Origin: Microbacterium sp. NPDC077663
GTDB lineage: Bacteria; Actinomycetota; Actinomycetes; Actinomycetales; Microbacteriaceae
Direction: 5' to 3'
DNA length: 64,000 nucleotides
NCBI RefSeq assembly: GCF_044542795.1
Contig: NZ_JBITVE010000002.1
Span: forward strand, 250,058-314,057
Under the pieces are notes generated by a model. It was not told the origin of the DNA. It saw only the letters and a program-made list of their open reading frames with translations, and did not search any database. Positions within the stretch are counted from its first letter, which is position 1. Each line of letters starts with the position of its first letter. Both the position numbers and the translations under genes were made by a program. Of the stretch, positions 40,036-64,000 are shown one piece after another.

Positions 40036-40146
40036 CGGACGAGCGTGGCACCTCGAGCCCGCCATGGCCACGGGGTTGCGGCGACGGCGGACGGACCGCG
40101 CGTCTCGCGGTCGGCGGCATCCGCCGTCACAGGGCAGAATCGAGGG

Positions 40147-41025
<879 letters not shown>

Positions 41026-41032
41026 CGCGCGC

Positions 41033-41100: not shown

Positions 41101-41107
41101 CCGGGCG

Positions 41108-48744: not shown

Positions 48745-48790
48745 GTCCGGCGGGGTGCGGCGTCTAGCGGCCTACCGTGGCGAAGCCGCG

Positions 48791-48806
48791 ATGTTACCGA
48801 TAACAT
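48791..48806 (+). promoter_or_regulatory. AraR-type operator (ATGTTACCGATAACAT)
   Basis: 16 bp near-palindrome 8 bp upstream of the araD ATG. It resembles, as I recall it, the corynebacterial LacI-type AraR box ATGTTAGCGCTAACAT. Confidence 0.55.
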
Positions 48807-48813
48807 CGACGAC

Positions 48814-49509: not shown

Positions 49510-51173
49510 GCGCCATCGCTTCCGGCCGGACATCGCTGGGCATCGAGCTCGGATCGACCCGCATCAAGGCCTGCCTCGTCGACGCGGAGAACCCGACCAC
49601 CGTGCTCGCCGTCGGCAGCCACGAGTGGGAGAACGCGCTCGAAGACGGCGTCTGGACCTACGCCGAGGACGCCATCTGGTCGGGGCTGCAGGCGGCCTAC
49701 GCCGACCTCGTCGCCGACGTCCGTCGCCAGGGCGCAGAGCTTACCGAGCTCGCCGGCATCGGCGTCTCGGCGATGATGCACGGCTACCTCGCCTTCGACG
49801 AGGGCGGCAACCTCCTCGTTCCGTTCCGCACTTGGCGCAACACCTCCACGGGGGCCGCCGCGGCCGAGCTGACCGAGCTGCTCGGCGTCAACATCCCGCT
49901 GCGCTGGTCGATCGCCCATCTGCACCAGGCGATCCTCGACGACGAGGCGCACCTCGCCTCGCTGGCGAAGATCAACACCCTCGCCGGGTGGGTGCATGAG
50001 AAGCTCACCGGACGTTTCGCGCTGGGCGTCGGCGACGCGTCGGGCATGTTCCCCGTCGGCTCGGACGGCCAGTACGACCGCGAGCGCGTGGCCGCGTACG
50101 ACGCGCACGCCACGGGATTCCTCGCGGGCCGCAGCCTCACGGACCTGCTGCCCGAGGTGCTCCCCGCGGGAGCGGACGCCGGGACCCTCAGCGCCGAGGG
50201 CGCCGCCCTCCTCGACCCCACCGGAACGCTCCGGCCGGGTGCCGTGGCGGCCCCCGCCGAGGGCGACGCCGGCACCGGCATGGTCGCCACGAATGCGGTC
50301 TCGCCGCGCACCGGCAACGTCAGCGCCGGCACGAGCATCTTCGCGATGGTCGTCCTCGAGCGCCCGCTCGAGCGGGTGCACACCGAGATCGACCTCGTCA
50401 CCACGCCCGCGGGCGATCCGGTCGCCATGGTCCACTGCAACAACGGCGCGAGCGAGCTGGCGTCGTTCGTGTCGCTGTTCTCGCGGTTCGCCGCGGCATC
50501 CGGTCAGTCGCTGACGAACGATGCCGTCTACGAGACGCTCCTGCGCGAAGCCCTCGAGGGCGCCGCGGATGCCGGCGGCGTGCTCGCGTACAACCACTTG
50601 AGCGGCGAGCCGATCGCCGGCCTCGACGAGGGCCGCCCGCTCGTCGTGCGCACGCCGGACGCGGAGTTCTCGCTCGCGAACGTCATGCGGGCACAGGTCT
50701 ACGGCGTTTTCGCGACGCTGGCGATCGGCATGCAGACCCTCGCTGAGGAGGGTGTCGGGCTCGACCAGATGTTCGCCCACGGCGGGGTGTTCCGCACCGC
50801 GGGGGTCGCGCAGCGCTTCCTTGCCGGAGCCCTCGACGCTCCCGTCACGGTCGGCGACACGGCGGCAGAGGGCGGCGCGTGGGGCATGGCCGTGCTCGCG
50901 GCGTTCGCGGCAGCGCAGCGCGACGTTCCGGGGACGCGGGATGCCACCGGAGCGGCAACCGAGCGACAGGACGCGTCCCCGGAGCTTGCCGCCTACCTCA
51001 CCGACCACGTGTTCGCGGGGGCGGCATCCGTCACCGTGGACCCGGATCCGGCGGACGTCGCCGGGTTCGCCGACTACCTCACCCGCTACCGCGCTGGTCT
51101 CGCCGCCGAGGCCGCCGCCGTCACCGCACTGCCGCTGCGCGGCATCCGCTCATCGAACGAAGGAACAGCATGA
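49506..51173 (+). CDS. araB: ribulokinase (FGGY carbohydrate kinase)
   Basis: 555 aa with an FGGY N-terminal motif ([13 protein letters not shown]); ATGA overlap with araD and araA. Confidence 0.85.
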
Positions 51174-52672
51174 CCCTCTCCACCAGCCTCGAGCAGTACA
51201 CCGTCTGGTTCGTCACCGGCAGCCAGAACCTCTACGGCGAGGAGACGCTGCGCCAGGTCGCCGAGCAGTCGCAGGCCGTCGCCGAGGGCCTCGCCGGTCT
51301 TCCGGTGACCGTCGAGTGGAAGCCCGTCCTGAAGGACTCGGACTCGATCAAGCGACTCGCGCTCGACGCCAACGCGGACGATTCGGTCATCGGCGTCATC
51401 GCCTGGATGCACACCTTCAGCCCCGCCAAGATGTGGATCTCGGGCCTCGACGCACTCCGCAAGCCCCTGCTGCACCTGCACACGCAGGCGAACGTCGAGC
51501 TGCCCTGGAACGACATCGACTTCGACTTCATGAACCTCAACCAGGCCGCCCACGGCGACCGCGAGTTCGGGTACATCCAGACGCGCCTGGGCGTGCCGCG
51601 CAAGACGGTCGTCGGCCACGTCTCGAACCCGGTCGTCGTGCAGCAGATCGAGGATTGGGAGCGCGCCGCCGCGGGCTGGCAGGCCGTGAACACCCTCAAG
51701 CTCGCGCGCTTCGGCGACAACATGCGCTACGTCGCCGTCACCGAGGGCGACAAGACCGAGGCCGAGCTGCAGTTCGGCGTGCAGGTGAACACGTGGGGCG
51801 TGAACGAGTTGGCGGATGCCGTGGCCCAGGCATCCGAGGCGCAGATCGACGCCCTCGTCGAGGAGTACGTCGCCTCCTACGACGTGGCCGACGAGCTGCT
51901 GCCGGGAGCCGAGCGGCACCAGTCGCTGCGCGACGGCGCGGCGATCGAGATCGGGCTGCGCTCGTTCCTCGAAGCAGGCGGCTTCGGAGCGTTCACGACG
52001 TCGTTCGAGGACCTGGGTGCGCTGACGCAGCTGCCCGGTCTCGCCGTGCAGCGCCTGATGGCCGAGGGCTACGGCTTCGGCGCCGAGGGCGACTGGAAGA
52101 CCGCGATCCTCGTCCGCGTCGCGAACGTCATGGGCTCGGGGCTGCCCGGTGGAGCGAGCCTCATGGAGGACTACACGTACGACCTCGTCCCCGGTAACGA
52201 GCGGATCCTCGGCGCCCACATGCTCGAGGTCTCGCCGTCGCTGACGACGTCGAAGCCGCGCCTCGAGGTGCACGAGCTCGGCATCGGCGGCAAGGCCGAC
52301 CCCGTCCGTCTCGTCTTCACGGCGGACGCGGGTCCCGCGCTCGTGGTCGCGATGAGCGACATGCGCGACCGGTTCCGCCTCGTCGCGAACGTCGTCGAGA
52401 ACGTCGACGCCCCCGACCTGCCGAAGCTGCCGGTCGGCCGCGCCGTCTGGAAGCCGTCGCCCGACTTCGCGACCTCGGCATCCTGCTGGCTCGCGGCGGG
52501 CGCCGCACACCACACCGTCATGACGACGGCCGTGTGCATCGAGGTGTTCCGCGACTTCGCCGAGATCGCCGGCACCGAGCTGCTCGTCATCGACGAGGAC
52601 ACGACGGTGCGCGGATTCCAGAAGGAGCTCCGCTGGAACCAGGCGTACTACCGCCTCGCGCGCGGGCTGTAA
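51170..52672 (+). CDS. araA: L-arabinose isomerase
   Basis: Internal ATG after GAAGGAACAGC; 500 aa with AraA-like similarity throughout ([11 protein letters not shown] ... EGDWKTA). Confidence 0.85.
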
Positions 52673-52849: not shown

Positions 52850-53401
52850 TCAGTGCCCGCCGTGTCCGCCGTGCCCGGGCATGAAGACCTCGTTGACCTC
52901 GGCGCCGGGCGCATCGCTGCCGATGGGCGTGGCCGCGAGAGCGGGGGTCACGAGACCCGCCATCAGGAACGCCCCGACGATCAGCCCGCCGACGCTCGTG
53001 CGGGCCGCGGTGCGTGCGGCCGGACTCGACGAGCGCGAACGGTCCGCCCTGCGGAGGGCGACCGCTGAGACGACGCCGAGCGCCAGGCCCAGCCCGGCCG
53101 AGACGACGACGGGGTAGATGCTGGTCTGCGGCGGACCGACCACCAGCAGGGCGGTCACGGCGAGAAGACCCGCGAGCGAGATCACGATGCCGGCGCGCGG
53201 AGCGATGACCCGCCCCCGCATCAGGGCGAAGACCCCCCACGCGACGGTGCCGGCCCCGATGGTGGCGAGAAGGACGCCGACGCCGCGATCAGCAGCGTCG
53301 ACGCCCTTCACGATGGCGCCCGCGCCCAGTCCGAGCTGCAGCAGTCCCGCGCCCCACGCGGCGAGCGCGGGCCAGGAACGGACCAGGACGGACGGCGACA
53401 T
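52850..53401 (-). CDS. hypothetical membrane protein with C-terminal His-rich tail (GHGGHGGH)
   Basis: 183 aa with 4-5 TM helices. The HGGHGGH terminus suggests metal binding; that is inference. Confidence 0.45.
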   Translation of the reverse strand: MSPSVLVRSWPALAAWGAGLLQLGLGAGAIVKGVDAADRGVGVLLATIGAGTVAWGVFALMRGRVIAPRAGIVISLAGLLAVTALLVVGPPQTSIYPVVVSAGLGLALGVVSAVALRRADRSRSSSPAARTAARTSVGGLIVGAFLMAGLVTPALAATPIGSDAPGAEVNEVFMPGHGGHGGH

Positions 53402-53811
53402 CAGACGGCCGCGCGAGCCGAGACCTGCTTGTCAGCGGCGATGCCGACGCCGAGCAGCACGAGCGCGCTGGCCAGGTGCAGGAAGTGGTCGGCGGTGTTC
53501 AGCGCCAGGATGTTCGCGGCGGTGCCGACGAGGAAGAAGCCCACGACGCCGAGCAGCAGGTACGCGGCACCGACGACGATGTTGACGCCCTTGGCGGCGC
53601 GGACGTTGGACAGACCGCCGATGAGCAGCGCCGCTCCGATGAGAAGGTGCGCGACGTTGTGCAGCGGGTTGACCATGAAGATGCCGAGCAGCAGCTGGCC
53701 GTCCGTGGCGAGGAAGTCCACGCCACCGGTCACGGCGAAGCCGAGCAGCCCGACGAGGATGTAGACGGCGCCGAAGATGACGGCGACGAGGCGGTTGGGT
53801 GAGCTGGTCAT
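53401..53811 (-). CDS. DUF4383 domain-containing membrane protein
   Basis: Start at the internal ATG (MTSSPNRLVAVIFG...) after GGAGGG; 136 aa with 4 TM helices; 1 nt overlap with the downstream gene. Confidence 0.55.
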   Translation of the reverse strand: MTSSPNRLVAVIFGAVYILVGLLGFAVTGGVDFLATDGQLLLGIFMVNPLHNVAHLLIGAALLIGGLSNVRAAKGVNIVVGAAYLLLGVVGFFLVGTAANILALNTADHFLHLASALVLLGVGIAADKQVSARAAV

Positions 53812-54003
53812 GGGATTGTCCCTCCGTGTGATGCGGCGGATGCCGCGGGCCCTGCAGACATGTGGTGCTGCAAGACATTCGGTGCGACGCCCCGAACGGA
53901 TTGCGTCGGATGCGTCGTCGCCGACAGTAGGGAGGTGCTCACCCCGCGGCATAGCGGTTGTGGCCGCAGACCTTCGGTGCTATGAGCAGGCTGTGAACAG
54001 CGG

Positions 54004-55938
54004 TCAGTCCCGCAACAGCGTCCTCGTGCGGGTCCCGTCCGGCCAGACGACCTCAACCGCCTCGCCCTCGACACGAACGGACACCTCGAGACGCGCGTAC
54101 AACCCCGCGCCGCGCAGGTCGAGCACGACGGCGGCAACGCGCCCGACCGCCACGTCGAGGTCGACGACGGGCACCGCGATGCGCGCGCCGAGCGGCCCGG
54201 CATCCGCCCTCGTCACGACCTCCGCCGTCCCTCCCGAGTGCGAGCGGATGCCGCTGCGCAACGCACCGGCGACGGCGACCGCCTCGGCGCCGTCGATGCG
54301 AGCCTCGGGATCGTCGCCGGCTACGGCCCAGCCGCCGACCCGCAGGCGCACCTCCTCGGGGGCCACGCCGGGGGCGAGTTCCTCGACGCGGACGAGGCGG
54401 ACCTCGAGGCCGCCCCGCACGAGCGAATCCACCCGCAGGCGACCGGCACGACGGCCGACGCCCGCGAACCCCGGACCGTGGTTGCGGGTCGGCGCGTCGG
54501 TCGTGACCCAGTGGGCGTCCCAGACCGCCGCAGCCACCCCCACCTTCTCGTCCGCAATTCCGTCGATCCGAACGCCCCGCAGGCGCATCCCGGCGCGATG
54601 CGTCGCCCGCCCGTCGGGCGCCCGCAGCACGACGGACTGCTCGAGCGGTTCCGCCCAGGCCCGCGCGTCGAGCAGCGGCGCGGTCGCGGTGGAGTAGCCG
54701 ATGCGGGCGTACAGCGGCGAGTCCGTCGACACGGTGCCCGGCTGCGCGTGGTCCTTGCCGTGGTTGACGACGCGGACGATCCCGTCGTCGCGGGTGGCTG
54801 AGATGATCCAGCCCGGCGAGCGCACCGCGCGGAGCGCGTCGCCCGCCTCGACGGGCAGCGGCTCGGGGGCGGCGGTCCACACCGGGTGGTCGGCGGGAAG
54901 CATGATGCCCATGAGTCCCTTCACCGCCCAGTAGGGCGACCCCGGCCCGGAGTACGACTGCGCCATCGCGCGCCACGGGCCGTGCCAGCCCATCGTGAGG
55001 ACGCCGTCGGCGTCGGGGACACCCCGGTCGGCGAAGTGGCGGACGACGGCTTCGGCCGCATGCCGCAGTCTGCCGGGCGCGTGGGAGGGCGCCTCGGCGA
55101 TCACACCGATCCAGAAGACGGCGGCCGCGGCGAAGCGGTAGATGAGGCTGCGCCCCTGGATGAGCGGCGACCCGTCGGCACCGACCAGAGCGAGCGCATC
55201 GTCGAGGAAGCTATCCAGTCGGGCGATGTCGCCCGCCGTCCTGCCGGCGGCGAGGTCCGCCGCCCCCGACATCCGCGACCACAGGATCGGGTACGTGTGC
55301 AGCGCCCACCCGACGTAGTGGTCGTACGAGCGATCATCACCGTCGGAGAGCCAGCCGTCGTCGCGGATGAAGGAGTCGTGCCGAGCGAGGTCGGCCGCGA
55401 TGTCGTCCGCCGACCACGGCCCACCCACCGATCGCAGGAAGGTCTGCACGACGATCCGGAACCACACCCAGTTGTTGCGCGGGTAGCCGTCGTCGCCCAC
55501 CACCGACGCGAACCAGTCGATCGCCCGCTGCCGTGTGACGGCGTCGAGGGTGTCCCAGACCCACGGCCGGGTCAGGTCGAGGACGATCGCGATGGATGCC
55601 GCTTCGACCTTCGCCTGCCCGTGCTCGTCCGGGCGCACCCACCGGTCCGGTGCCTGCGGATCGACGCCGGAGGCGACACCTCTGCGGACGAACGCGAGCA
55701 GCTCGTCGACACCCTCGCCCCGCGCACTCGCGATGCGGAAGCCGGCGACCAGCAGCGTGCGGGCGAACCCCTCCAGGCCGTCGATGTCGTGGCCGTAGCC
55801 GCCTTCGGCACCCGGGAAGTGGATGCGTCCGCCGCCCGCCGTCGCGTGCCGCTGGGCGCCATCCAGCAGCCGGTCGGCGTACGCGACCCAGTCGTCGCGG
55901 GACCATTCCCGTCGTTCGGATCGCGCGTCGGCTGCCAT
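54004..55938 (-). CDS. DUF2264 domain-containing protein (putative glycoside hydrolase-like)
   Basis: Start at the internal ATG (MAADARSERREWSRDDWVAYADRLL) after GGGAGG; 644 aa. The 5' third of the 992 aa ORF is antisense/out-of-frame overlap with glxK. Confidence 0.7.
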   Translation of the reverse strand: MAADARSERREWSRDDWVAYADRLLDGAQRHATAGGGRIHFPGAEGGYGHDIDGLEGFARTLLVAGFRIASARGEGVDELLAFVRRGVASGVDPQAPDRWVRPDEHGQAKVEAASIAIVLDLTRPWVWDTLDAVTRQRAIDWFASVVGDDGYPRNNWVWFRIVVQTFLRSVGGPWSADDIAADLARHDSFIRDDGWLSDGDDRSYDHYVGWALHTYPILWSRMSGAADLAAGRTAGDIARLDSFLDDALALVGADGSPLIQGRSLIYRFAAAAVFWIGVIAEAPSHAPGRLRHAAEAVVRHFADRGVPDADGVLTMGWHGPWRAMAQSYSGPGSPYWAVKGLMGIMLPADHPVWTAAPEPLPVEAGDALRAVRSPGWIISATRDDGIVRVVNHGKDHAQPGTVSTDSPLYARIGYSTATAPLLDARAWAEPLEQSVVLRAPDGRATHRAGMRLRGVRIDGIADEKVGVAAAVWDAHWVTTDAPTRNHGPGFAGVGRRAGRLRVDSLVRGGLEVRLVRVEELAPGVAPEEVRLRVGGWAVAGDDPEARIDGAEAVAVAGALRSGIRSHSGGTAEVVTRADAGPLGARIAVPVVDLDVAVGRVAAVVLDLRGAGLYARLEVSVRVEGEAVEVVWPDGTRTRTLLRD

Positions 55939-55952
55939 GGACGACCTCCCGG

Positions 55953-57059
55953 TCAGGTTCTCCGCTGGGCCAGGCGCCGCCCGGCTTCGGTCAGCCACCG
56001 CGACGGATCGGCCATGGATGCGGCGGCGCTGCCCGCGAGCTCGGTCAGCGAGATCGCGTGCGCGAAGCCCGACGTGTCGGCATCCGGTCCGATCCGCCCG
56101 GCGACGACCGCGACGGGCACACCGTGCGCCGTGGCCAGCCCGTGGACGAAACCGGGCACCTTGCCCGCGGCGGACTGCCCGTCGAACGAGCCCTCGCCCG
56201 TGACGACGAGGGATGCCGCGGCCACCGCCCCGGCCAGATCCACGAGGTCGGCGACGCGCTGCGCGCCGGGCACCAGCTCGGCGCCCCAGGCGGCGAGGGC
56301 GAAGCCCGTGCCACCCGCCGCTCCCGCGCCCGGCAGGAGGGGGTCGGCGGCGGGGACACGTCGGGCGATGCAGGCGGCGTAGCGCTCGAGCACACCGTCG
56401 ACCACCTCGACGTCCGCGGCCGTCAGGCCCTTCTGCGGGCCGAAGACAGCGGCGGCGCCCGCCGGTCCCGTGAGCGGGTTGGTCACGTCGCTGAGCACCG
56501 TGACGCCGCCGGCCGGCGGGGCGAGCAGGTGGGAGAAGTCGATCGCCGAGACCGCGGCGAGCCCGCGCGCGCCCGCGGGGACGTCGCGCCCGTCGGCGTC
56601 GACCATGCGCGCACCGAGGGCCCGCAGCATCCCGCTCCCCCCGTCGGTCGAGGCGGACGACCCGATACCGAGGACGAGCCGGTCCACTCCTGCGTCCAGC
56701 GCTGCGGCGATCGCCTGCCCGAAGCCGGTCGTGTCGGCGTCCCAGGGCAGGCGGTCCTCCCCGAGGAGCTCGATGCCGCTCGTAGATGCGAGCTCGACGA
56801 CACCCGTCCCGTCGGGGAGCAGCAGCCAGGAGGCGTCGACCGGGGTACCGCGGGGGCCGCGCACCCGAACCGGCTGCCGGTTCGCCCCGGGGACGGCGGC
56901 GGCGAAGGCGTCGAGCGTCCCCTCGCCCCCGTCCGCCATCGGGCGCAGGACGACGTCGGCCGTCGGGTCGACCTCGCGCCATCCCGCCGCGAACGCGACG
57001 GATGCCGCGGCGGCAGGAAGCGAGCCCTTGAGACTGTCGAGGGCGACGACGAGGGTCAT
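55953..57059 (-). CDS. glxK: glycerate kinase
   Basis: Start at the internal ATG (MTLVVALDSLKGSL). Glycerate kinase family similarity throughout; ATGA overlap with the upstream LacI gene. Confidence 0.8.
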   Translation of the reverse strand: MTLVVALDSLKGSLPAAAASVAFAAGWREVDPTADVVLRPMADGGEGTLDAFAAAVPGANRQPVRVRGPRGTPVDASWLLLPDGTGVVELASTSGIELLGEDRLPWDADTTGFGQAIAAALDAGVDRLVLGIGSSASTDGGSGMLRALGARMVDADGRDVPAGARGLAAVSAIDFSHLLAPPAGGVTVLSDVTNPLTGPAGAAAVFGPQKGLTAADVEVVDGVLERYAACIARRVPAADPLLPGAGAAGGTGFALAAWGAELVPGAQRVADLVDLAGAVAAASLVVTGEGSFDGQSAAGKVPGFVHGLATAHGVPVAVVAGRIGPDADTSGFAHAISLTELAGSAAASMADPSRWLTEAGRRLAQRRT

Positions 57060-58099
57060 GCGCGCGGCGGGGTGCTCTCGCGCAGCAGCACGTCGAGCCG
57101 GAGATCGTCGGGATGCGGCTCCCACTGGGCGTCGGTCGCGGCGCGGAACGCCTGGTAGCCGACCTCTTCGAGCGGGACGTGCACGGTGGTGAGGGCGGGT
57201 GTCACGTCGCGACCGGTGGGGATGTCGTCGAAGCCCGCCAGGGCGATGTCGGCGCCGGCGGTGCGCCCGGCCGCGCGGATCGCCGTCAGCGCGCCGATCG
57301 CGACGACGTCGCTGATGCCGAACACGACCGTGCCCGCCTCGACGCCGTTCGCGAGCGCACGGGTCATCGCCTCGTAGCCGGACTCGCGGGTGAACCCGCC
57401 GCGGTAGACGCGGGGCTCTTCGCCGCCGCCGCCCGTGAAGCCGGCGCGGAAGCCGTCGAGACGGGTGTCGCTCGTCGCGGTCCCCTCCTCGGCGGCGAGG
57501 ACGATCGCCCGGCGGTAGCCGCGCTCGACGAGCGCACGTCCGAGAGCCTCGGCCCCCGCGCGGTTGTCGAGGACGAGCGAGCGCACGCTCCCCGCTCCGG
57601 GGCCGAGGGCGACGACCTGACCGCCCATCGCGGCGAGCAGGTCGAGTTCACGGGTGAGCTCGGGGGCGGGGCCGGCCGACGTGCGCGACGCGGCGAGGAT
57701 GAGTCCGCGCGGACGCTGGCCGCGCAGTGCGCGGACGAGGCGCACCTCGCGTTCCGCGTCGCGTTCGGTGATCGCCACCGTGACGACGAGGCCGGCCTCA
57801 TCCGCTCCGCGGGCGACACCCGAGGCGATGAGCCCGAAGTAGGGGTCGGCGATGTCGGCCACCAGCAGTGCGATGATCGCCGAGGTCCCGCGCGCGGTCG
57901 CCTGCGCCGAGAGGTTCGCGGTGTAACCGAGACGGGCCGCGGCCGCCTCGACGCGCTCGCGGTACGAGTCCGCGACCTTGCGGGTCGAGCCGTTGAGGGC
58001 GCGCGACGCGGTCGCGAGCGACACGCCCGCCTCGCGTGCGACGTCGTCGAGGGTCACCGCGCCCGAAGGGCCCGGTCGACGCAGGGTACGGTCCGTCAT
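57056..58099 (-). CDS. LacI family transcriptional regulator
   Basis: HTH (VTLDDVAREAGVSLATASRALNG) and a sugar-binding core; 347 aa. Confidence 0.8.
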   Translation of the reverse strand: MTDRTLRRPGPSGAVTLDDVAREAGVSLATASRALNGSTRKVADSYRERVEAAAARLGYTANLSAQATARGTSAIIALLVADIADPYFGLIASGVARGADEAGLVVTVAITERDAEREVRLVRALRGQRPRGLILAASRTSAGPAPELTRELDLLAAMGGQVVALGPGAGSVRSLVLDNRAGAEALGRALVERGYRRAIVLAAEEGTATSDTRLDGFRAGFTGGGGEEPRVYRGGFTRESGYEAMTRALANGVEAGTVVFGISDVVAIGALTAIRAAGRTAGADIALAGFDDIPTGRDVTPALTTVHVPLEEVGYQAFRAATDAQWEPHPDDLRLDVLLRESTPPRA

Positions 58100-58144
58100 G
58101 GTGCGAAGTCTACGGGCGGCCCTCGGCGTGCCCGCCGCGACCCG

Positions 58145-59017
58145 TCATCGACCGACGAGGTGCGGCGACACGGATGCCGCGAACCCCGCCACGGTCCGGC
58201 GAACCGCCTCGAGCGGCTCGGTGGCCCACACATCCGCGTTGAAGATCTCCACCTCGATGTCGCCCGTGTACCCCGTGTCGACGACGGCGCGGGTGAGGCC
58301 CGCCAGGTCGATCACGCCGTCGCCCGGATAGTGCCGGCCGAGCAGGACGTCCGCCGGGAGCGGGGTCTTCCAGTCGCAGACCTGGTACGTCGCGATCCGG
58401 CCCTCGCGGCCGGCACGCGCGATCGAGTCGAGGACGTCGGGATCCCAGAAGATGTGGAACGTGTCGACGGCGACGCCCACGACCGACGGGTCGAAGTCCG
58501 CCGCGAGGTCGAGCGCCTGCCCGAGCGTCGAGACGACGCACCGGTCGGTCGCGTACATCGGATGCAGCGGCTCGATCGCAAGCGTCACTCCGGCCTCGGC
58601 CGCGAAGGGCGCGAGTTCTCCCAACGCGTCGCGCACCCGCTCCCGGGCACCGAGCAGGTCGCGGGAGCCGTCGGGCAGTCCGCCGGCCACGAGCACGAGC
58701 ACGGCCTCCGAACCGGGGGCACCGGCCGCGGCGAGCGTGGCCGCCTCGTCGATGGCGACACGGTTGTCGTCGATCGACGCGCGACGGGCCGGGCCCTCGG
58801 GCATCGTGAAGAAGCCCGAGCGGCAGTGCGTCGAGAACCGCAGGCCCGAATCGGTCAGCATCGAGGCGGCGGTCTGCAGCCCGACCTCCTGCACCGGCTC
58901 GCGCCACAGACCGATCGACTGCACTCCCGCCGCTGCGGTCACGCGCAGCGCGGTCGCGAGGTCGGCGTGCTTGATCGTGCCTTGATTGATCGACAGGCGC
59001 GGGTCGACGGCGCTCAC
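58145..59017 (-). CDS. sugar phosphate isomerase/epimerase (xylose isomerase-like TIM barrel)
   Basis: GTG start at 59017 overlapping the upstream stop (GTGA); TIM-barrel AP-endonuclease/xylose-isomerase-like family; 290 aa. Confidence 0.75.
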   Translation of the reverse strand: MSAVDPRLSINQGTIKHADLATALRVTAAAGVQSIGLWREPVQEVGLQTAASMLTDSGLRFSTHCRSGFFTMPEGPARRASIDDNRVAIDEAATLAAAGAPGSEAVLVLVAGGLPDGSRDLLGARERVRDALGELAPFAAEAGVTLAIEPLHPMYATDRCVVSTLGQALDLAADFDPSVVGVAVDTFHIFWDPDVLDSIARAGREGRIATYQVCDWKTPLPADVLLGRHYPGDGVIDLAGLTRAVVDTGYTGDIEVEIFNADVWATEPLEAVRRTVAGFAASVSPHLVGR

Positions 59018-60216
59018 GCGTCGAGACCGTTCAGCCGCAGCATCCCGTTCCACCGCTCTGCGGCCAGCTCGGGACGCTCGAACGCCTTCGCCTCGTTCGC
59101 GAGCTCGACGATGCGCGAGAGGTGAGGCAGGCTGCGTGCGGAGTGCAGCCCGCCGACCATCTGGAACGCGGGCTGGTGCCCGTTGAGCCAGGCGAGGAAG
59201 GCCACGCCGGTCTTGTAGTAGAACGTGGGAGCGGCGAACACCTGACGTGACAGCGCCTCGGTGGGGGCGAGCACCTCGAGGTAGCGGGCCGGGTCGCCCG
59301 CGTCGAGCGCCTGGATGGCCGCCGACGCGACGGGGGTCAGCGCGGCGAACGCCCCGAGCAGTGCGTCCGAGTGCTGCCGGGCGGATGCCGGGTCGCGCGT
59401 CGGCTGCGGTGCGTCGGGCACGTCGGCGCCGCCGATGAGGCCGACGTAGTTGAAGTCGTCGCCCGTGAACATACGCACGGACTCGGGCAGGCGCTCGCGC
59501 ACCGAGACCTCGGAGGCCGCGTCGAGCAGGCTCATCTTGACACCCGCGACCTTGTCGACGTTCGCCTCGATGACCTCCAGCAGCACGGCCGACGCGGTCT
59601 GCCAGTCGGCCGCCCCGAAGTAGCCCGCCAGCTGCGGATCGAAGGCGGTGCCGAGCCAGTGCAGCACGACCGGGCCGGACGCGCGCGAGAGCACTGCGTC
59701 GTAGACCCGGCGGTAGTCATCGGCGCTCTCGGCGACGCGGGCGAGGTGGCGGGACGCCATGAGCACGGGGCCGGCACCCTGTTCCTCGGTGAAGTGGAGC
59801 TGCTCGAGGTAGGCCGAGACGACCTCGTCGAGCGTGATCCGCTCCTCCTCGACGTGGTCGGTGTTCACGCCGACGACGACGGAGCCGCCCTCTTCGCGGG
59901 CCACCTCGGCGGAGCGGGAGATCAGCTCACGGGTCGCCGCGGCATCCAGGCCCATGTTGCGCTGCGCGGTGTCCATCGCGTCGGCGACGCCCAGGCCCCA
60001 GGAGTAGACGTTGCGTCGGAACGCGAGCGTCGCCTCCCAATCGATGTCGGCCGGCTGCCCGGGGGTGTTGTCGGCGTGGGTCTTCGGCACGACGTGTGCC
60101 GCGGCGTAGGCGACGCGGCTGCGGAGTGCTCCGTCGGGGCGCGTGTAGCCGGACGTGTCGACGAGCGGGACGCGGCGGAGGACGCCGTCGCCCGACAGCA
60201 GGGTGAGATCGGTCAC
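59014..60216 (-). CDS. DUF993 / dihydrodipicolinate synthase-like family protein
   Basis: 400 aa with similarity to the DHDPS-like DUF993 proteins found in sugar-catabolic loci beside Gfo/Idh/MocA oxidoreductases. Confidence 0.65.
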   Translation of the reverse strand: MTDLTLLSGDGVLRRVPLVDTSGYTRPDGALRSRVAYAAAHVVPKTHADNTPGQPADIDWEATLAFRRNVYSWGLGVADAMDTAQRNMGLDAAATRELISRSAEVAREEGGSVVVGVNTDHVEEERITLDEVVSAYLEQLHFTEEQGAGPVLMASRHLARVAESADDYRRVYDAVLSRASGPVVLHWLGTAFDPQLAGYFGAADWQTASAVLLEVIEANVDKVAGVKMSLLDAASEVSVRERLPESVRMFTGDDFNYVGLIGGADVPDAPQPTRDPASARQHSDALLGAFAALTPVASAAIQALDAGDPARYLEVLAPTEALSRQVFAAPTFYYKTGVAFLAWLNGHQPAFQMVGGLHSARSLPHLSRIVELANEAKAFERPELAAERWNGMLRLNGLDA

Positions 60217-60219
60217 GGC

Positions 60220-61425
60220 TCAGTCCAGCGTGAGCGCGTCGAGCTCGACCTTGCGACGCTCGCGGCTCGAGCGCAGGCCCGCCTCAGCCAGCTGCACGCC
60301 GCGTGCACCCGCGAGGAGGTCGAACTCGTAGTCGGTTCCCTCGACGTACGAGACGAGGAACTCCTCCCACTGCTGGCGGAAGCCGTTCATGAAGACGTCG
60401 TTCGTCGGCACCTGCTGCCAGTCGGCGTCGTAGTCGTGCGAGTCCTCGAGGTCGGGGTTCCACACCGGCTTGGGCGTCGCGTTGCGCGGCTGGATCTTGG
60501 CGCCGAACAGGCCCACGACGGCCGAGCCGTGCGTGCCGTCGACGTGGAACTCCACGAGCTCGTCGCGGTTGACGCGGACGGTCCACGAGGAGTTGATCTG
60601 CGCGACGACGCCGCCCTCGAGCTCGAACACGCCGTAGGCGGCGTCCTCGGCGGTGGCGGTGTAGTGCTCGCCCTTCTCGTCCCAGCGGTCGGCGATGTGC
60701 ACAGCCGCCTGCGCGTAGACGGAGTCGACCTTGCCGAAGAGGTTCTCGAGCACGTAGTTCCAGTGCGGGAACATGTCGACGATGATGCCGCCACCGTCCT
60801 CGGCACGGTAGTTCCACGAGGGGCGCTGCGCGGGCTGCCAGTCGCCCTCGAAGACCCAGTAGCCGAACTCGCCGCGGACGGAGAGGATGCGGCCGAAGAA
60901 GCCCGAGTCGATCAGGCGCTTGAGCTTCTGCAGGCCGGGCAGGTAGAGCTTGTCGTGCACGACGCCGGTCTTGACGCCCGCCTCGGCGGCGAGCTTCGCG
61001 AGTTCGAGTGCCTCTTCGAGGGACTCGGCGGTCGGCTTCTCGGTGTAGATCGTCTTGCCGGCGGCGATCGCCTTGCGCAGCGCCGTGGCCCGCGCCTTCG
61101 TCACGAGGAAGTCGGCGTAGATCTCCCAGCGCGGGTCGGCGAGCGCGGCATCCAGATCGGTCGTGTAGTCCTCGATGCCGTGCTTCGCAGCGAGCTCGGC
61201 GAGCTTCGCCTCGCTGCGACCCACGAGGAGCGGCTTGACCGTGACCTTCGACCCGTCGGGCAGCTCGATGCCGCCCTGGTCGCGGATCGCGAGGATGGAG
61301 CGCACGAGGTGCTGACGGTATCCCATGCGGCCCGAGACGCCGTTCATGATGATGCCGATCTCGCGGACGGCAGGGGCGGCGGGAGCAGCCGCCGGGGCGG
61401 GAGCGGTGATGGTCGTCTCTGACAC
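60220..61425 (-). CDS. Gfo/Idh/MocA family oxidoreductase
   Basis: 401 aa with an N-terminal Rossmann fold (IGIIMNGVSGRMG) and a GFO_IDH_MocA C-terminal domain. Confidence 0.85.
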   Translation of the reverse strand: MSETTITAPAPAAAPAAPAVREIGIIMNGVSGRMGYRQHLVRSILAIRDQGGIELPDGSKVTVKPLLVGRSEAKLAELAAKHGIEDYTTDLDAALADPRWEIYADFLVTKARATALRKAIAAGKTIYTEKPTAESLEEALELAKLAAEAGVKTGVVHDKLYLPGLQKLKRLIDSGFFGRILSVRGEFGYWVFEGDWQPAQRPSWNYRAEDGGGIIVDMFPHWNYVLENLFGKVDSVYAQAAVHIADRWDEKGEHYTATAEDAAYGVFELEGGVVAQINSSWTVRVNRDELVEFHVDGTHGSAVVGLFGAKIQPRNATPKPVWNPDLEDSHDYDADWQQVPTNDVFMNGFRQQWEEFLVSYVEGTDYEFDLLAGARGVQLAEAGLRSSRERRKVELDALTLD

Positions 61426-61476
61426 GGTGTGGTCCTTCGTCTGGTTCTCCGCGCGGCGTGGGGCCCGCCCAGTGCG

Positions 61477-61490
61477 GGTAAGCGCTTTCC
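61477..61490. promoter_or_regulatory. LacI-type operator candidate GGTAAGCGCTTTCC
   Basis: Near-palindrome with the LacI-family core AAnCGnTT (AAGCGCTT), in the divergent region between the Gfo/Idh/MocA operon and the ABC transporter. Confidence 0.45.
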
Positions 61491-61603
61491 CTTCAGTGTG
61501 TCATCGCTGTCCGGAATCCGCAAGAACGATCGGATGAGGCTCCGCAACCCCGTCCGGGAGAGGATGGAGGGGGTTGTCGCAAAGACGTTACATATCCGAC
61601 ACA

Positions 61604-61617
61604 GGTAAGCGCTTGCC
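61604..61617. promoter_or_regulatory. LacI-type operator candidate GGTAAGCGCTTGCC (second copy)
   Basis: Same 14-mer with one substitution, 127 bp from the first and about 120 bp upstream of the ABC substrate-binding gene. Confidence 0.45.
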
Positions 61618-61736
61618 GCGAAACCGTCTCGGGGTTACCTTATGAGCACCCCTTGTCATGACATGCCGACAAATACCCGGTTGCCCGCTCATGACTCACC
61701 CCGCGCTCACCGAGGAGCGCACGCGAAGGAGAAGCA

Positions 61737-63011
61737 GTGAAGAGTTCCCGCACCATCCGTACCGCCACAGTCATCGCCGCAGCGGTGGGCGCTCTCGTGC
61801 TCGCCGGCTGCTCGTCGTCCAACGGCGGCGGCAGCGGCGAAGGTCAGGACGTCACCCTCGAGTTCGTCCAGTCGGGCGACGCCGCACAGGGTGGCGGCTA
61901 CGCCATGCTCGCGAAGAAGTACGAGGAGGAGACCGGCGTCAAGGTCAAGGTCGTCGAGGTCCCGAACGACGACCTCCGTACCCGTCTCCGCACCGCTTCG
62001 CAGGCCAACGACCTGCCTGCGCTCGCTGCGGCGCCCGACGCCGACCCGGCGTGGACCGACCGCATGCTCGACCTCACCGACATCGCCGAAGAGGCGAAGG
62101 TCATCCCCGCGCTGCGCGTCGAGGACCCCGAAGACGGCAAGGTCAAGGCGCTCCCGACGACCCTCACCGGCGTCGGCATGTTCCTCAACAAGACCCTCTG
62201 GGACGAGGCCGGCGTCGAGTACCCCACCACGCTGGACCAGCAGTGGACGTGGGACGAGTACGTCGAGAAGGCGTCCGAGGTCGTCGACAAGACGGATGCC
62301 GAGTTCGGCGGCGTCATCGACAGCTCGGCGCACCGCCTCCGCGCGTTCCTCTTCGAGTTCGGCAGCCAGGGCGTCACCGAGCAGAGCGACGGCACCTGGG
62401 CACTCGACTCCGAGGGTGCCACGGCGCTCGAGTACTTCAAGAAGCTGAACGATGACGGCTTCCTGCCGAAGGCCGTCTGGGCCGCTGGTGACGACCCCAG
62501 CGCGACCTTCAAGAGCGGTCGCGTCGCCGGCTACATGTCGGGCGTCTGGCAGATCGCCGACTTCCAGGCCAACATCAAGGACTTCGAGTGGATCTCGGTG
62601 CCGCTGCCGCAGCAGCCGGTCCGCTCGACGAACTACGGTGCCGCGTCCTGGATCGTCGCGTACGACGGCACAGGAGTCGAGCAGGAGACGCTCGACTTCG
62701 TGAAGTGGATGTACCAGCCGGAGAACTACACCGAGTACTGCGAGATCTCGGGCTGCCTGCCCGCGATCGAGGACGTCGACATCGAGTACAAGGACGACGC
62801 CTACGCGTTCGACCTCTACAACGGCGAGATCGCCGCGTCGCCCGAGATCGCGGCGCGTCAGACCGTCGACGGCCTCAAGAACAGCTACACCGGCCTCGCG
62901 ATCGACAGCGAGCCGCTGAAGGATGAGACCGTGAAGTACCTCAACGGCGAGCAGACGCTCGAGCAGACCGTCGAGAACATCAACACGATCTCCACCGATC
63001 AGATGAAGTGA
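61737..63011 (+). CDS. ABC transporter substrate-binding lipoprotein (carbohydrate, family 1 SBP)
   Basis: GTG start after GAAGGAGAAG; lipoprotein signal (AAAVGALVLAGCSSS); 424 aa. Confidence 0.8.
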   Translation: MKSSRTIRTATVIAAAVGALVLAGCSSSNGGGSGEGQDVTLEFVQSGDAAQGGGYAMLAKKYEEETGVKVKVVEVPNDDLRTRLRTASQANDLPALAAAPDADPAWTDRMLDLTDIAEEAKVIPALRVEDPEDGKVKALPTTLTGVGMFLNKTLWDEAGVEYPTTLDQQWTWDEYVEKASEVVDKTDAEFGGVIDSSAHRLRAFLFEFGSQGVTEQSDGTWALDSEGATALEYFKKLNDDGFLPKAVWAAGDDPSATFKSGRVAGYMSGVWQIADFQANIKDFEWISVPLPQQPVRSTNYGAASWIVAYDGTGVEQETLDFVKWMYQPENYTEYCEISGCLPAIEDVDIEYKDDAYAFDLYNGEIAASPEIAARQTVDGLKNSYTGLAIDSEPLKDETVKYLNGEQTLEQTVENINTISTDQMK

Positions 63012-63030
63012 TCTCCCTAGGGAACCCCGC

Positions 63031-63984
63031 ATGACTGCAACCATCACGCCGGACGCCTCCGCCCCCGCGGCGGGGGCGCCCGGCGCGCCCTCCCGTCCCC
63101 GCCGCAAGCGTGCTTTCGGCCGGTACCGCATGGCGCCGTTCCTTTTCACGGTCATCACGGCCGCGCTCTTCGCCCTGTTCTTCCTGTGGCCGGGCGTCCT
63201 CGGGCTCTCGTACTCGCTCACGGACTTCCGTGGGTGGGGCGACGCCAATTTCGTCGGCCTCGACAATTACGGCGCACTCCTGAGCGACCCGAGCTTCTAC
63301 GCCGCCCTCGGCCGCACGTTCGTTTTCGCCCTGTTCTCCGTGCCGCTGAGCTACGCGCTCTCGCTCGGCATGGCCGTCGCCATCAACGCGACGCACGCCC
63401 GCGGCAAGACGGCCGCGCGCATCATCTTCTTCCTGCCCTGGCTCGTCTCCCCCATCGTCACCGGTGTCATCTGGCGGTGGATGTTCGGAGAGAGCTTCGG
63501 CTTCGTGAACTTCGTCATCAGCCTCCTCGGCGGCGATCGGGTGCCGTGGTCCTCCAACGCCGACCTCTCGCTCTTCGTCGTCATCGTGGCGTCGTCGTGG
63601 GGCGGTGCGGCCTTCAACATGCTGCTGTTCGTCGCGGCGCTCAACAACGTGCCCCAGTCGTACTACGAGGCAGCCGAGCTCGACGGTGCGAACGGGTGGC
63701 AGCGCTTCGTCCACATCACTCTGCCCTCGATCGCCCCGACCTCCGTGCTCGTGGTCCTGCTGTCCACACTGGGGCACATGAAGGAATTCGCGCTGATCCA
63801 GTCGCTCAACGGCGGTGGGCCGGGCACGCAGAACCGTTTGATCGTCCAGTACATCTACGAGACCGGCTTCAAGCAGTCCGAGATCGGCTATGCCAGCGCC
63901 GCGTCGATGATCCTCCTGGTGATCCTCATGGTCATCGCGATCATCCAGCTGCGCATCAGCCGGAGGAGCAACAACTCATGGTGA
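63031..63984 (+). CDS. carbohydrate ABC transporter permease (MalF/UgpA-like)
   Basis: 317 aa with 6 TM helices and a partial EAA loop motif (EAAELDGANGWQRF). Confidence 0.85.
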   Translation: MTATITPDASAPAAGAPGAPSRPRRKRAFGRYRMAPFLFTVITAALFALFFLWPGVLGLSYSLTDFRGWGDANFVGLDNYGALLSDPSFYAALGRTFVFALFSVPLSYALSLGMAVAINATHARGKTAARIIFFLPWLVSPIVTGVIWRWMFGESFGFVNFVISLLGGDRVPWSSNADLSLFVVIVASSWGGAAFNMLLFVAALNNVPQSYYEAAELDGANGWQRFVHITLPSIAPTSVLVVLLSTLGHMKEFALIQSLNGGGPGTQNRLIVQYIYETGFKQSEIGYASAASMILLVILMVIAIIQLRISRRSNNSW

Positions 63985-64000
63985 CCACCTACGCCCTCAC
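63978..64000 (+). CDS. second ABC transporter permease, 5' fragment truncated by the window edge
   Basis: ATG at 63978 overlaps the previous stop (ATGGTGA); only 7 codons are visible. Confidence 0.35.

Follow-up and report, generated by a model that had tools for sequence, protein, structure and literature searches.

Gene organization of the locus

Toward the end of the window (the 64,000-nucleotide stretch of Microbacterium DNA analysed here), six genes on the minus strand are arranged divergently from an ABC importer operon on the plus strand. Pfam assignments across the six genes and the importer confirmed the gene content and order given in an earlier note on this DNA. The first gene of the minus-strand operon encodes a Gfo/Idh/MocA NAD(P) oxidoreductase (Gfo; 401 residues; 60220–61425; PF01408, PF02894, and PF22725) and has a GTG start codon preceded by GAAGGA. 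It is followed by the genes of a DUF993 protein (400 residues; 59014–60216; Pfam, 535 bits) and a xylose-isomerase-like TIM barrel protein (TIM; AP_endonuc_2, PF01261, 126 bits; 290 residues from GTG 59017; 58145–59017), the latter with an alternative start at 59053 (Pfam-assigned extent, 58145–59053). Downstream lie the genes of a LacI-family repressor (347 residues; 57056–58099; PF00356 with PF13377/PF00532), a GlxK/GarK-type glycerate kinase (GlxK; 368 residues; 55953–57059), and a two-domain DUF2264 protein (644 residues; 54004–55938; PF10022, 340 bits). The kinase scored 364 bits with Gly_kinase (PF02595, assigned on the reading frame 55953–57125) and 311 bits with TIGR00045, whose cut-off is 168 bits. 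A 992-codon open reading frame at 54004–56982 was rejected as a high-GC artefact, its first third being an out-of-frame reading of the glycerate kinase gene; the true start of the DUF2264 gene is ATG 55938, with the Shine-Dalgarno sequence GGGAGG 6 nt ahead.

On the plus strand, a CUT1-type sugar-binding lipoprotein (SBP_bac_1/8; 424 residues; 61737–63011; PF13416 and PF01547; lipobox LAGC), whose gene starts with GTG preceded by AAGGAG, is followed by an ABC permease (permease 1; BPD_transp_1; 317 residues; 63031–63984; PF00528). The importer operon continues past the window edge. The plural permeases of the earlier note thus reduce to one inside the window; a second was observed only in the closest relative, L001, whose permease is 95% identical to permease 1. 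The same note had described the gene boundaries as coupled by GTGA and ATGA overlaps, which holds for two of the five junctions: DUF993/TIM (GTGA, 59017–59014, provided that TIM starts at that GTG) and LacI/GlxK (ATGA, 57059–57056). The Gfo/DUF993, TIM/LacI, and GlxK/DUF2264 junctions are gaps of 3, 45, and 14 nt, respectively, the last containing the GGGAGG sequence.

Operators and the proposed LacI regulon

The divergent spacer contains two 14-mers whose starts are 127 bp apart, exactly as had been claimed. O1, GGTAAGCGCTTTCC (GGAAAGCGCTTACC when read toward Gfo), lies at 61477–61490, 52 nt upstream of the Gfo start codon, and O2, GGTAAGCGCTTGCC, lies at 61604–61617, 120 nt upstream of the start codon of the binding protein. 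They are the sole matches within the 64 kb; 0.39 matches at two or fewer mismatches were expected by chance, or 0.09 for the degenerate palindrome at one or fewer, and no shuffle reached the observed count. A tentative promoter of the Gfo operon was placed on the minus strand at 61495–61523, composed of a −35 hexamer TTGCGG (61523–61518), a 17-nt spacer, and a −10 hexamer CACACT (61500–61495); O1 begins 4 nt downstream of this −10. A scan with the sigma-70 consensus found nothing, so that the assignment is based only on conservation: relatives repeat TTGCG and a −10-like hexamer at the equivalent place relative to the operator, which lies 3–10 nt downstream of the −10-like element.

Among 80 Microbacteriaceae loci compared, operators could be scored in 67. 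The predicted operator GGAAAGCG(C/T)TTACC (the same 14-mer with at most one mismatch, within 300 nt upstream of Gfo) was found in 61 of the 67. Approximately 60 of the 80 loci have a LacI ortholog (identity 58% or higher) after the TIM gene. Both the ortholog and the site were present in 54 of the scorable loci and neither in five, while seven had the site only and one had LacI only, supporting the view that the predicted operator tracks the LacI ortholog in this family. Seventeen further copies were detected in 1.5 Mb of related loci, and 11 or 12 of them are upstream of binding-protein genes, which head ABC operons with DUF624, GH42, and GH51. The O2 variant in other loci lies 18–145 nt upstream of such genes, and O2 and its flanks are conserved in L001. 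The predominance of binding-protein genes behind the extra operators indicates that regulating the Gfo operon together with an importer operon is the conserved design. These results support the reading of the Microbacterium locus as a carbohydrate catabolic operon under LacI control, with a pair of operators in the spacer between the divergent genes.

The arrangement resembles that of LacI/GalR repressors which control divergent sugar operons through paired operators (for example, GalR and CcpA-type cre sites) in the N-terminal LacI helix-turn-helix joined to a periplasmic-binding-protein-like effector domain, in the 14-bp near-palindrome with a central CG and an AAnCGnTT core, and in the position of the sites at or just downstream of a promoter. 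It differs in the location of the regulator gene, midway along the catabolic operon. The 347-residue LacI protein lacks a C-terminal tetramerising extension, so separate dimers probably bind the two sites.

Conserved core and variable neighbours

The Gfo-DUF993-TIM trio was found in every untruncated locus among the 80, and everything outside it differs from locus to locus. In L001, for instance, a three-gene NMT1-type ABC insert separates the TIM and LacI genes. The flanks often consist of housekeeping genes. Glycerate kinase follows the trio in approximately 42 of the 80 loci, and a plasmid of Glaciihabitans and one of Paracoccus yeei also carry the string of Gfo, DUF993, TIM, and glycerate kinase. 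A kinase of the MOFRL type takes the place of GlxK, to which it is unrelated, in P. yeei, S. meliloti, Mesorhizobium, and Mameliella; roughly half of the distant loci have no glycerate kinase within 9 kb. The four genes form a module whose conservation extends from Actinomycetota to Proteobacteria. An aldehyde dehydrogenase is a recurring member of the distant DUF993 clusters. Many proteobacterial DUF993 clusters contain acyl-CoA dehydrogenase, ETF, CoA-transferase, and enoyl-CoA hydratase genes, and in proteobacterial clusters an SDR takes the place of Gfo.

The divergent importer, by contrast, is not the conserved partner of the trio: an importer orthologous to it and directly divergent from Gfo was found in just two loci, L001 and, with 50% identity, L071. 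In most relatives the ABC operon is a different one, co-directional and with GH42 and GH51 genes, and their co-regulated neighbours include GH42, GH35, GH51, GH43, araBAD, and galETK. In L001 the importer operon continues after permease 1 with permease 2, a GH38 alpha-mannosidase, and a 567-residue protein that matched no family.

The domain treated as anonymous DUF2264 can now be placed in the GH154 family, members of which were recently demonstrated to be beta-glucuronide 4,5-dehydratases (PMC12269599). The protein matched the beta-D-glucuronic acid dehydratase structures 9o4u and 9nwf in the PDB (E ~1e-25), and the ten residues mutated in BcGDH all have identical counterparts in the alignment; the active site is intact. 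The N-terminal domain is thus a candidate uronate (beta-glucuronide) 4,5-dehydratase of the GH154 type. The protein has the DUF2264 domain of the characterised enzymes (BcGDH of B. caccae PUL25 and BT_3677; PMC12269599) and the two-domain architecture of BT_3677, but it is only ~25% identical to them, is cytoplasmic (no signal peptide was found) and actinobacterial, and belongs to a LacI operon; no GH88/GH105 partner was seen near the locus, although this pairing is typical of the family. The window and L001 are the only cases in which the gene stands immediately after glycerate kinase. Thirteen of the 80 loci have paralogs (34–72% identity) no more than 10 kb from the trio, in several arrangements, with no operator ahead of the DUF2264 genes in other loci; on the Glaciihabitans plasmid the gene is directly divergent from Gfo. 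DUF2264 and the divergent importer are lineage-specific add-ons.

Relationship of the core enzymes to known systems

The closest solved structure to Gfo is 3oqb, an uncharacterised structural-genomics oxidoreductase (E 1e-146), while characterised PDB relatives matched at E 1e-14 or weaker, with LgdA, DgpA, and IolG at only 1e-9 to 1e-4. No NCBIfam equivalog cut-off was reached by Gfo. The best match was IolG (70 bits against a cut-off of 355), and the firm placement in the iol pathway that the earlier note had considered was not found. Its framing of the locus in terms of 3-keto-glycoside, levoglucosan, or C-glycoside pathways also finds no orthology: Gfo scored 62 bits with the LgdA model and 21 bits with that of disaccharide 3-dehydrogenase, both with cut-offs of 650. 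TIM matched 3ju2/3qc0 (SMc04130) and 7vpf at E ~1e-66, none of which has an assigned reaction; its matches to IolI and IolO were weak, and the PDB search returned no LgdB, LgdC, or CarB structure. The iol, levoglucosan, and C-glycoside sets contain no orthologs of these enzymes. The module shares with IolG/IolE, LgdA/LgdB/LgdC, and CarA/CarB/CarC-DgpA/B/C the adjacency of the Gfo and barrel superfamilies, a LacI regulator, and an ABC importer, whereas the third partner, DUF993, and the link to glycerate kinase are particular to it.

DUF993 is a TIM barrel of the DHDPS/N-acetylneuraminate-lyase (NAL) fold with an invariant lysine, K227, which is a candidate Schiff-base residue. Sequence profiles do not link it to DHDPS/NAL: a search of the PDB gave no match at E values up to 10, and hhalign against an approximate DapA sequence also found nothing.

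Non-phosphorylative Entner-Doudoroff-type and oxidative sugar routes employ an aldose dehydrogenase, an aldonate dehydratase, a NAL-family KDG aldolase, an aldehyde dehydrogenase, and glycerate kinase. The module resembles them in its NAD(P) oxidoreductase, NAL/DHDPS-fold enzyme, and terminal glycerate kinase, and the MOFRL-type kinase that replaces GlxK in the proteobacterial versions recalls the archaeal non-phosphorylative pathway. The three core enzymes have no orthologs there, however; a xylose-isomerase-like barrel would have to act as the dehydratase, DUF993 exceeds the NAL-family enzymes by 100 residues in length and is undetected by their profiles, and the Microbacterium operon has no aldehyde dehydrogenase. 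The glucarate and glyoxylate end-pathways of E. coli (GarL-GarR-GarK; Gcl-Hyi-GlxR-GlxK) likewise end in a GlxK/GarK-type kinase, the latter with a barrel of the Hyi fold beside it, and an aldolase-type step would similarly give a C3 unit; but GarL is a class II HpcH aldolase, not of the NAL fold, and TIM scored 24 bits against the Hyi cut-off of 353.

Discussion

We give about an even chance to a model in which a LacI-repressed regulon serves an oxidative, non-phosphorylative cleavage route to glycerate. LacI would bind the two near-palindromic 14-bp operators and, being encoded within the operon, would be autoregulated. With O1 just downstream of the likely −10 and O2 in the leader of the divergent CUT1 importer, one effector would de-repress uptake and catabolism together. 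Gfo and TIM (an isomerase or dehydratase in this scheme) would turn a sugar or uronate into a 2-keto-3-deoxy-type acid, which DUF993 would cleave to pyruvate and a C3 unit, the latter ending up as glycerate, to be passed by the kinase to lower glycolysis. That unrelated glycerate kinase families accompany DUF993 in different phyla argues for glycerate as a product. The reactions of the trio are all assigned by family analogy, none of its enzymes having a characterised close relative. In this lineage the cytoplasmic GH154-type dehydratase may have been added to the operon, and the regulator may have captured a different importer, which a GH38 alpha-mannosidase follows in the closest relative. 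No aldehyde dehydrogenase, lactonase, or GH88/GH105 hydrolase was found in the Microbacterium clusters, so the corresponding steps of the route are missing there. A simple aldolase route does not explain the CoA-type genes of the proteobacterial clusters.

A uronate-specific version, in which the trio is the downstream part of a glucuronide pathway bypassing KdgK/KdgA, appears doubtful. In this version, DUF2264 would make a 4,5-unsaturated glucuronide; TIM (in the role of KduI) would isomerise the released 5-keto-4-deoxyuronate and Gfo (in that of KduD) reduce it to 2-keto-3-deoxygluconate; and DUF993 would split the latter into pyruvate and glyceraldehyde, leading to glycerate. The intact DUF2264 active site, the paralogs near 13 of the 80 trios, and the divergent gene on the Glaciihabitans plasmid are in its favour, as are the co-regulated neighbours, which cover all arabinogalactan sugars except the uronic acid, and the SDR in place of Gfo in proteobacterial clusters, KduD being an SDR as well. 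Yet most trio loci lack DUF2264, which does not have its own operator, the neighbourhood showed no GH88/GH105 hydrolase, and distant type-A clusters adjoin monosaccharide-type ABC transporters rather than acid transporters. The model of the earlier note, in which Gfo oxidises C3 of a glycoside or anhydro-sugar (as do LgdA, CarA/DgpA, and glucoside 3-dehydrogenase) and TIM and DUF993 remove the aglycone by beta-elimination and hydration, seems unlikely. The pairing of Gfo with a xylose-isomerase-like barrel is the hallmark of such systems, a glycoside importer is co-regulated, and Gfo weakly matches LgdA (6a3f, E 4e-9) and DgpA (7xr9, E 2e-6); nevertheless, the equivalog thresholds are not approached, TIM retrieves none of the partner structures, DUF993 has no counterpart there, and the presence of two unrelated glycerate kinase families is left unexplained.

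It is quite unlikely that the functional unit is confined to Gfo, DUF993, TIM, and LacI, with glycerate kinase, DUF2264, and the importer as chance neighbours in a carbohydrate island. Such a view accommodates the variation of the non-trio genes, the insert in L001, and the frequent housekeeping flanks, but LacI and glycerate kinase are translationally coupled by the ATGA overlap, two non-homologous kinase forms recur with DUF993 in distant phyla, and O2 and its counterparts put importers in the same regulon. Very unlikely, in our judgement, is a cyclitol route in which Gfo would serve as an IolG-like dehydrogenase, TIM as an IolE-like dehydratase, and DUF993 as an IolD-like ring-opening hydrolase, acting on an inositol isomer or derivative. 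IolG is the best NCBIfam match of Gfo, scyllo-inositol dehydrogenase is among its PDB matches, and TIM weakly matches IolI and IolO; against this, the scores are far under the cut-offs (70 against 355 bits and 33 against 300), the locus has no IolB, IolC, IolD, or IolJ, and the known inositol route yields DHAP and malonate semialdehyde, not glycerate.

Of the overall interpretation in the earlier note, the LacI control through twin operators and the route through glycerate are retained, the latter supported by the recurrence of the kinase and its MOFRL-type replacement; the keto-sugar framing is not. The conserved core looks like an uncharacterised sugar-to-glycerate breakdown route, and the locus is a modestly interesting target for enzyme discovery within an ordinary regulatory design.

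Gene organization

ORF listing combined with Pfam and NCBIfam scans confirmed the gene list of the earlier note. On the minus strand, the genes for a Gfo/Idh/MocA oxidoreductase (Gfo, 60220–61425), a DUF993 protein (59014–60216), and a xylose-isomerase-like TIM barrel (TIM, 58145–59017), hereafter called the trio, are followed by those for a LacI regulator (57056–58099), a GlxK-type glycerate kinase (GlxK, 55953–57059), and a DUF2264 protein (54004–55938). The regulator gene is a member of the operon. An SBP_bac_1/8 lipoprotein with the lipobox LAGC (61737–63011) and one permease (63031–63984) are encoded on the plus strand. The boundaries of the operon had been described as coupled by GTGA and ATGA overlaps. 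Reading of the junctions showed that this is true of DUF993/TIM (GTGA) and LacI/GlxK (ATGA), whereas the other three junctions are gapped: 3 nt at Gfo/DUF993, 45 nt at TIM/LacI, and 14 nt at GlxK/DUF2264, the last of which contains the ribosome-binding site GGGAGG. A terminator scan of 53300–64000 gave a single terminator-like site, which lies outside the operon and is no more than expected by chance. The longest ORF here, with 992 codons (54004–56982, minus strand), was rejected as a gene; it is a high-GC shadow ORF (the G+C content of the window is 71%), the first ~348 codons of which are the glycerate kinase gene read out of frame as an arginine-rich string.

The window proteins were mapped onto 80 related loci of species-representative genomes, all from Microbacteriaceae; the window DUF993 protein is 96–97% identical to proteins of Microbacterium strains. 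The trio was present in every untruncated locus, followed by a LacI ortholog in about 60 and by a glycerate kinase in about 42 of the 80 loci. Only in the window and in its closest relative, L001, is DUF2264 the gene immediately after the kinase. The DUF2264 paralogs elsewhere (43–66% identity) lie several kb off in other orientations and lack the operator of the locus, none being detected upstream of these genes at ≤2 mismatches. In the window, two genes come next after the operon on its own strand (52850–53952, minus); they encode a DUF4383 membrane protein and a protein of 183 aa without a Pfam match. Their counterparts in three relatives lacking DUF2264 (L002–L004) directly follow the glycerate kinase, and thus DUF2264 looks inserted between the kinase and these genes in the window lineage.

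Several neighboring features were also observed. A three-gene NMT1/THI5-type ABC insert (permease, binding protein, and ATPase) separates TIM from LacI in L001 (12168–14893), and the same three genes are located after the glycerate kinase in L035, L039, L040, and L075. In the window, a second LacI-family regulator (47728–48744, plus strand) immediately precedes an L-arabinose operon, araD-araB-araA (class II aldolase/epimerase, FGGY kinase, and L-arabinose isomerase; region 47728–52672), and these ara genes also flank the trio in several relatives. A PTS EIIBCA permease followed by a GH1 phospho-beta-glucosidase-type enzyme (7328–10744, plus strand) constitutes an unrelated beta-glucoside system. 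The region 35304–41887 encodes an MFS transporter, an MR_MLE enolase-superfamily enzyme, GNAT and WcbI-like proteins, an ACT domain-containing formyltransferase, and an SDR, and it might constitute a further cluster related to sugar acids or polysaccharides.

Regulator, operators, and importers

The regulator possesses a LacI-type HTH (PF00356, 57 bits, residues 16–62) and a sugar-binding effector domain of the PBP type I (PF13377, PF00532, and PF13407 across residues 76–325). The two operators proposed in the earlier note were borne out. The sequence GGTAAGCGCTT(T/G)CC, in which 12 of the 14 positions are self-complementary, occurs as O1 on the Gfo side (61477–61490, GGTAAGCGCTTTCC) and as O2 on the binding-protein side (61604–61617, GGTAAGCGCTTGCC), and these are the sole matches within 64 kb. 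The chance expectation was 0.39 matches at ≤2 mismatches and 0.09 for the degenerate palindrome, and the observed count was reached by no shuffle. In the relatives, GGAAAGCG(C/T)TTACC was found with ≤1 mismatch within 300 nt upstream of Gfo in 61 of the 67 scorable loci, and 12 of the 14 positions are invariant across the Gfo leaders. The operator is conserved together with an adjacent LacI ortholog: both were present in 54 loci and both absent in 5, while the operator occurred without the ortholog in 7 loci and the ortholog without the operator in 1.

In the relatives, a −10-like hexamer ends 3–10 nt before the operator, and TTGCG precedes this hexamer at a distance of ~17 nt. The corresponding putative Gfo promoter of the window consists of the −10-like CACACT (61500–61495) and the −35-like TTGCGG (61523–61518). 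A scan of 53300–64000 for consensus sigma-70-like promoters found none, and the assignment is thus based on conservation alone. The predicted placement is that expected of a repressor blocking initiation, and the regulatory architecture is an ordinary, textbook LacI/GalR design. One clade (L005, L007, L008, L009, L012, L013, and L018) possesses a weaker second operator, GGAAAGCGCTTGCG, 41 bp upstream of the main site; it overlaps the −35-like TTGCGC, so that the promoter is bracketed by two sites. In the Gfo leaders of other clades, a weak operator-like site precedes the main site by 34 or 54 bp. A perfect 10-bp palindrome, TGTCATGACA, is located between O2 and the start codon of the binding protein (61654–61663). 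Both the palindrome and its flanks are kept in L001, and a second regulator may bind there.

Outside the Gfo leaders, 17 operator copies with ≤1 mismatch were found in 1.5 Mb of related loci, and 11 or 12 of them are located 18–145 nt upstream of a solute-binding-protein gene. In most relatives, this gene is the first of a co-directional operon, in which it is followed by two permeases, DUF624, in many cases a GH42 beta-galactosidase, and then a GH51 alpha-L-arabinofuranosidase; nearby genes include GH43, GH35, araBAD, and galETK. The extra operators point to a conserved design, in which one regulator has an operator at the catabolic operon and another at an importer/glycosidase operon. In the window and L001, the operator precedes a different, divergent importer, and this particular importer is a lineage-specific acquisition. 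It has the composition of a CUT1 importer, with the lipoprotein SBP_bac_1/8 receptor and permease 1 in the window and permease 2 in L001, and its operon contains no ATPase gene. Actinobacterial CUT1 importers usually lack an ATPase of their own and are served by a shared MsiK-type ATPase. The importer operon of L001 runs on from permease 2 to a 1017-aa GH38 alpha-mannosidase and a 567-aa protein (together 577–5330, minus strand), for the latter of which no Pfam, NCBIfam, or PDB relative was found.

Enzymes of the trio

Solved structures exist for DUF993 (4dnh) and for both partner enzymes. DUF993 has an N-acetylneuraminate lyase (NAL)-like fold, a (beta/alpha)8 barrel closest to members of the DHDPS/NAL superfamily. 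Among 14 sequences, down to 44% identity, K227 in the motif G-I/V-K-I/M-S-L-L is invariant and lies in a predicted strand (223–228), and an invariant TGDDFNY motif follows 25 residues later. This spacing from the lysine to GDD presumably equals that from K161 to G186-D187-D188 in E. coli DapA. K227 and GDD may thus mirror the Schiff-base lysine and the GDD strand of DHDPS, a resemblance that we regard as a lead and not a demonstration. A profile built from 14 diverse members of DUF993 found only 4dnh in the PDB at E values up to 10, and hhalign of DUF993 against a DapA sequence gave a probability of 0.2%. The family is abundant: at an E value of 1e-20 or lower, over 8000 database clusters were matched, and species-representative genomes yielded at least 540 relatives. 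Full-text literature searches on DUF993/PF06187 retrieved no paper on the family, and those on SMc04130-32, on 7VPF/4DNH/3OQB, and on DUF2264/PF10022 retrieved nothing useful on DUF993; SMc04132 is listed as uncharacterised in one S. meliloti transcriptome table. A paper on deoxyribonate, of interest for its glycerate kinase/CoA logic, was set aside, as these families are not involved in it.

The sole close structure of Gfo is the unannotated oxidoreductase 3oqb (E 1e-146). Gfo is remote from 1,5-anhydrofructose reductase, L-glucose/scyllo-inositol dehydrogenase, LgdA, DgpA, and IolG, and approached none of the NCBIfam equivalogs. TIM matches SMc04130 (3ju2 and 3qc0) and 7vpf at ~1e-66, and weakly matches IolI, IolO, hydroxypyruvate isomerase, and similar proteins. 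For the myo-inositol (iol) pathway, Gfo scored 70.3 bits against the IolG model TIGR04380 (cut-off 355) and 18 bits against NF052679 (cut-off 540), and TIM reached only IolI (E 1e-8) and IolO (33 bits versus 300). The region 54004–64000 encodes no ThDP enzyme, sugar kinase, or class II aldolase. For the levoglucosan pathway, the score against LgdA was 61.8 bits (NF052479, cut-off 650), with E 4e-9 for the PDB entry 6a3f. For the C-glycoside CarABC/DgpABC systems, DgpA (7xr9) was matched at only E 2e-6, no CarB or DgpC chain was matched by TIM at E 1e-3 or better, and no ORF for a small partner subunit was detected, the adjacent gene being DUF993. The core thus resembles the Gfo-plus-TIM pairs of these three systems at the superfamily level only. 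The earlier note had regarded orthology to the iol genes as grounds for abandoning its reading, and such orthology was observed neither for IolG nor for IolE/D/B/C/J. Its reading as a LacI-controlled catabolic locus stands, but the kinship that it drew to the inositol, levoglucosan, and C-glycoside sets is not supported.

DUF2264

The (alpha/alpha)6 domain of the window DUF2264 protein (PF10022, 340 bits, residues 1–344 of the trimmed protein) matched the solved GH154 beta-D-glucuronate 4,5-dehydratase of B. caccae (BcGDH, 9o4u/9nwf) at E ~1e-25 (9e-26 for 9o4u). The whole GH154 family has been argued to consist of uronate 4,5-dehydratases, which prime glucuronides for GH88/GH105 hydrolases, and mutation of ten residues (E74, R78, N176, N177, W178, F181, Y229, R285, Y289, and Y354) inactivated BcGDH (PMC12269599). 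In our alignment, all ten correspond to identical residues of the window protein; for instance, R285 and Y289 correspond to R263 and Y267, and NNW..F to N155, N156, W157, and F160. Judged from these residues, the predicted GH154 catalytic site is intact. The window protein has no signal peptide and, like the related two-domain protein BT_3677, carries a second domain. The genes scanned in the window and L001 included no unsaturated uronyl hydrolase of GH88 or GH105.

Distant contexts and glycerate kinase

A tblastn search against plasmids and look-ups of profile hits yielded 19 further loci with three recurring contexts. In type A, Gfo-DUF993-TIM-glycerate kinase is located on plasmids of Glaciihabitans (with a divergent DUF2264) and Paracoccus yeei, and Gfo-DUF993 with an aldehyde dehydrogenase on an Arthrobacter plasmid. 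The four-gene module is conserved across phyla. Type B, found in S. meliloti, Roseateles, Sagittula, Rhizobium, Mesorhizobium, and Mameliella, has the order acyl-CoA dehydrogenase-SDR-DUF993-TIM-ETF; genes for CoA-transferase, enoyl-CoA hydratase, glycerate kinase, aldo-keto reductases, GMC oxidoreductase, and aldehyde dehydrogenase accompany it. In type C, from Rhizobiaceae, LacI-Gfo-CoA-transferase-hydratase-aldehyde dehydrogenase is divergent from a lone DUF993. In a Mesorhizobium tianshanense locus (L091), the gene that comes after DUF993 (11153–12778) specifies a single product of 541 aa with a xylose-isomerase-like barrel as well as an ETF domain, either a fusion or a mis-call; acyl-CoA dehydrogenase and ETF alpha are encoded in the same cluster. 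A Streptomyces plasmid homolog (39% identity) was set aside, as it lies in what looks like a secondary-metabolite cluster.

The window kinase belongs to the GlxK/GarK class (TIGR00045, 311 bits versus a cut-off of 168), and its scores for the 2-kinase and 3-kinase equivalogs (~223 bits) were below the thresholds of 686 and 625. In Paracoccus yeei, S. meliloti, Mesorhizobium, and Mameliella, the kinase beside DUF993 is of the MOFRL type (PF13660 and PF05161), which is unrelated to the GlxK type of Actinomycetota. The association of two non-homologous glycerate kinases with the same partner is the strongest evidence for glycerate as a product of this pathway, and lends support to the route through glycerate suggested in the earlier note. 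Glycerate is the probable endpoint of the pathway.

Discussion

We propose that the repressor binds O1 and O2 and would be freed by a sugar-derived effector, so that import, a glycosidase, and catabolism would be turned on jointly. A keto-deoxy acid would be prepared by the oxidoreductase and the TIM barrel, and DUF993 may cleave this acid via a lysine Schiff base into pyruvate and a C3 fragment. The C3 fragment would be converted to glycerate, which the kinase would return to glycolysis. The non-phosphorylative Entner-Doudoroff and related oxidative routes follow the same logic, here presumably carried out by non-orthologous enzymes. Counting against this route, the Microbacterium clusters show no aldehyde dehydrogenase, lactonase, or hydrolase step; the abundance of CoA-handling enzymes in the proteobacterial clusters is not explained by it; and the missing link between DUF993 and NAL at the sequence level is a weak point.

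The substrate may be a hexose that the co-regulated glycosidases release, or the uronic acid handled by DUF2264. A pathway specific to uronate seems doubtful to us. The reading can be extended to an undescribed pathway of Gfo, DUF993, TIM, and glycerate kinase, with DUF993 as a new Schiff-base lyase branch. In Microbacterium, it would be the missing GH88-independent, kinase-sparing uronate route, leading from arabinogalactan-type or mannose/glucuronate glycans via a GH154-type dehydratase to pyruvate and glycerate; we consider this full version unlikely. The GH38 enzyme of L001, taken with the glycerate kinase, would suggest mannosylglycerate as the substrate. This GH38 scored 90 bits against the MngB cut-off of 1138, and GH38 is absent from most trio loci. 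These two observations led us to reject mannosylglycerate as a specific claim.

The locus is a tractable entry point. The defined operator and repressor can be used for finding the inducer, glycerate is a chemical endpoint that can be tested for the conserved four-gene module, and the module is linked to glycoside importers and to the newly recognised GH154 uronate dehydratases. Three structural-genomics orphans together constitute a widespread, co-regulated module, the endpoint of which is probably glycerate. Solving the locus would give a function to all three and could bring a further sugar or uronate pathway into models of how plant glycans are turned over by rhizobia and by soil and plant-associated Actinomycetota.
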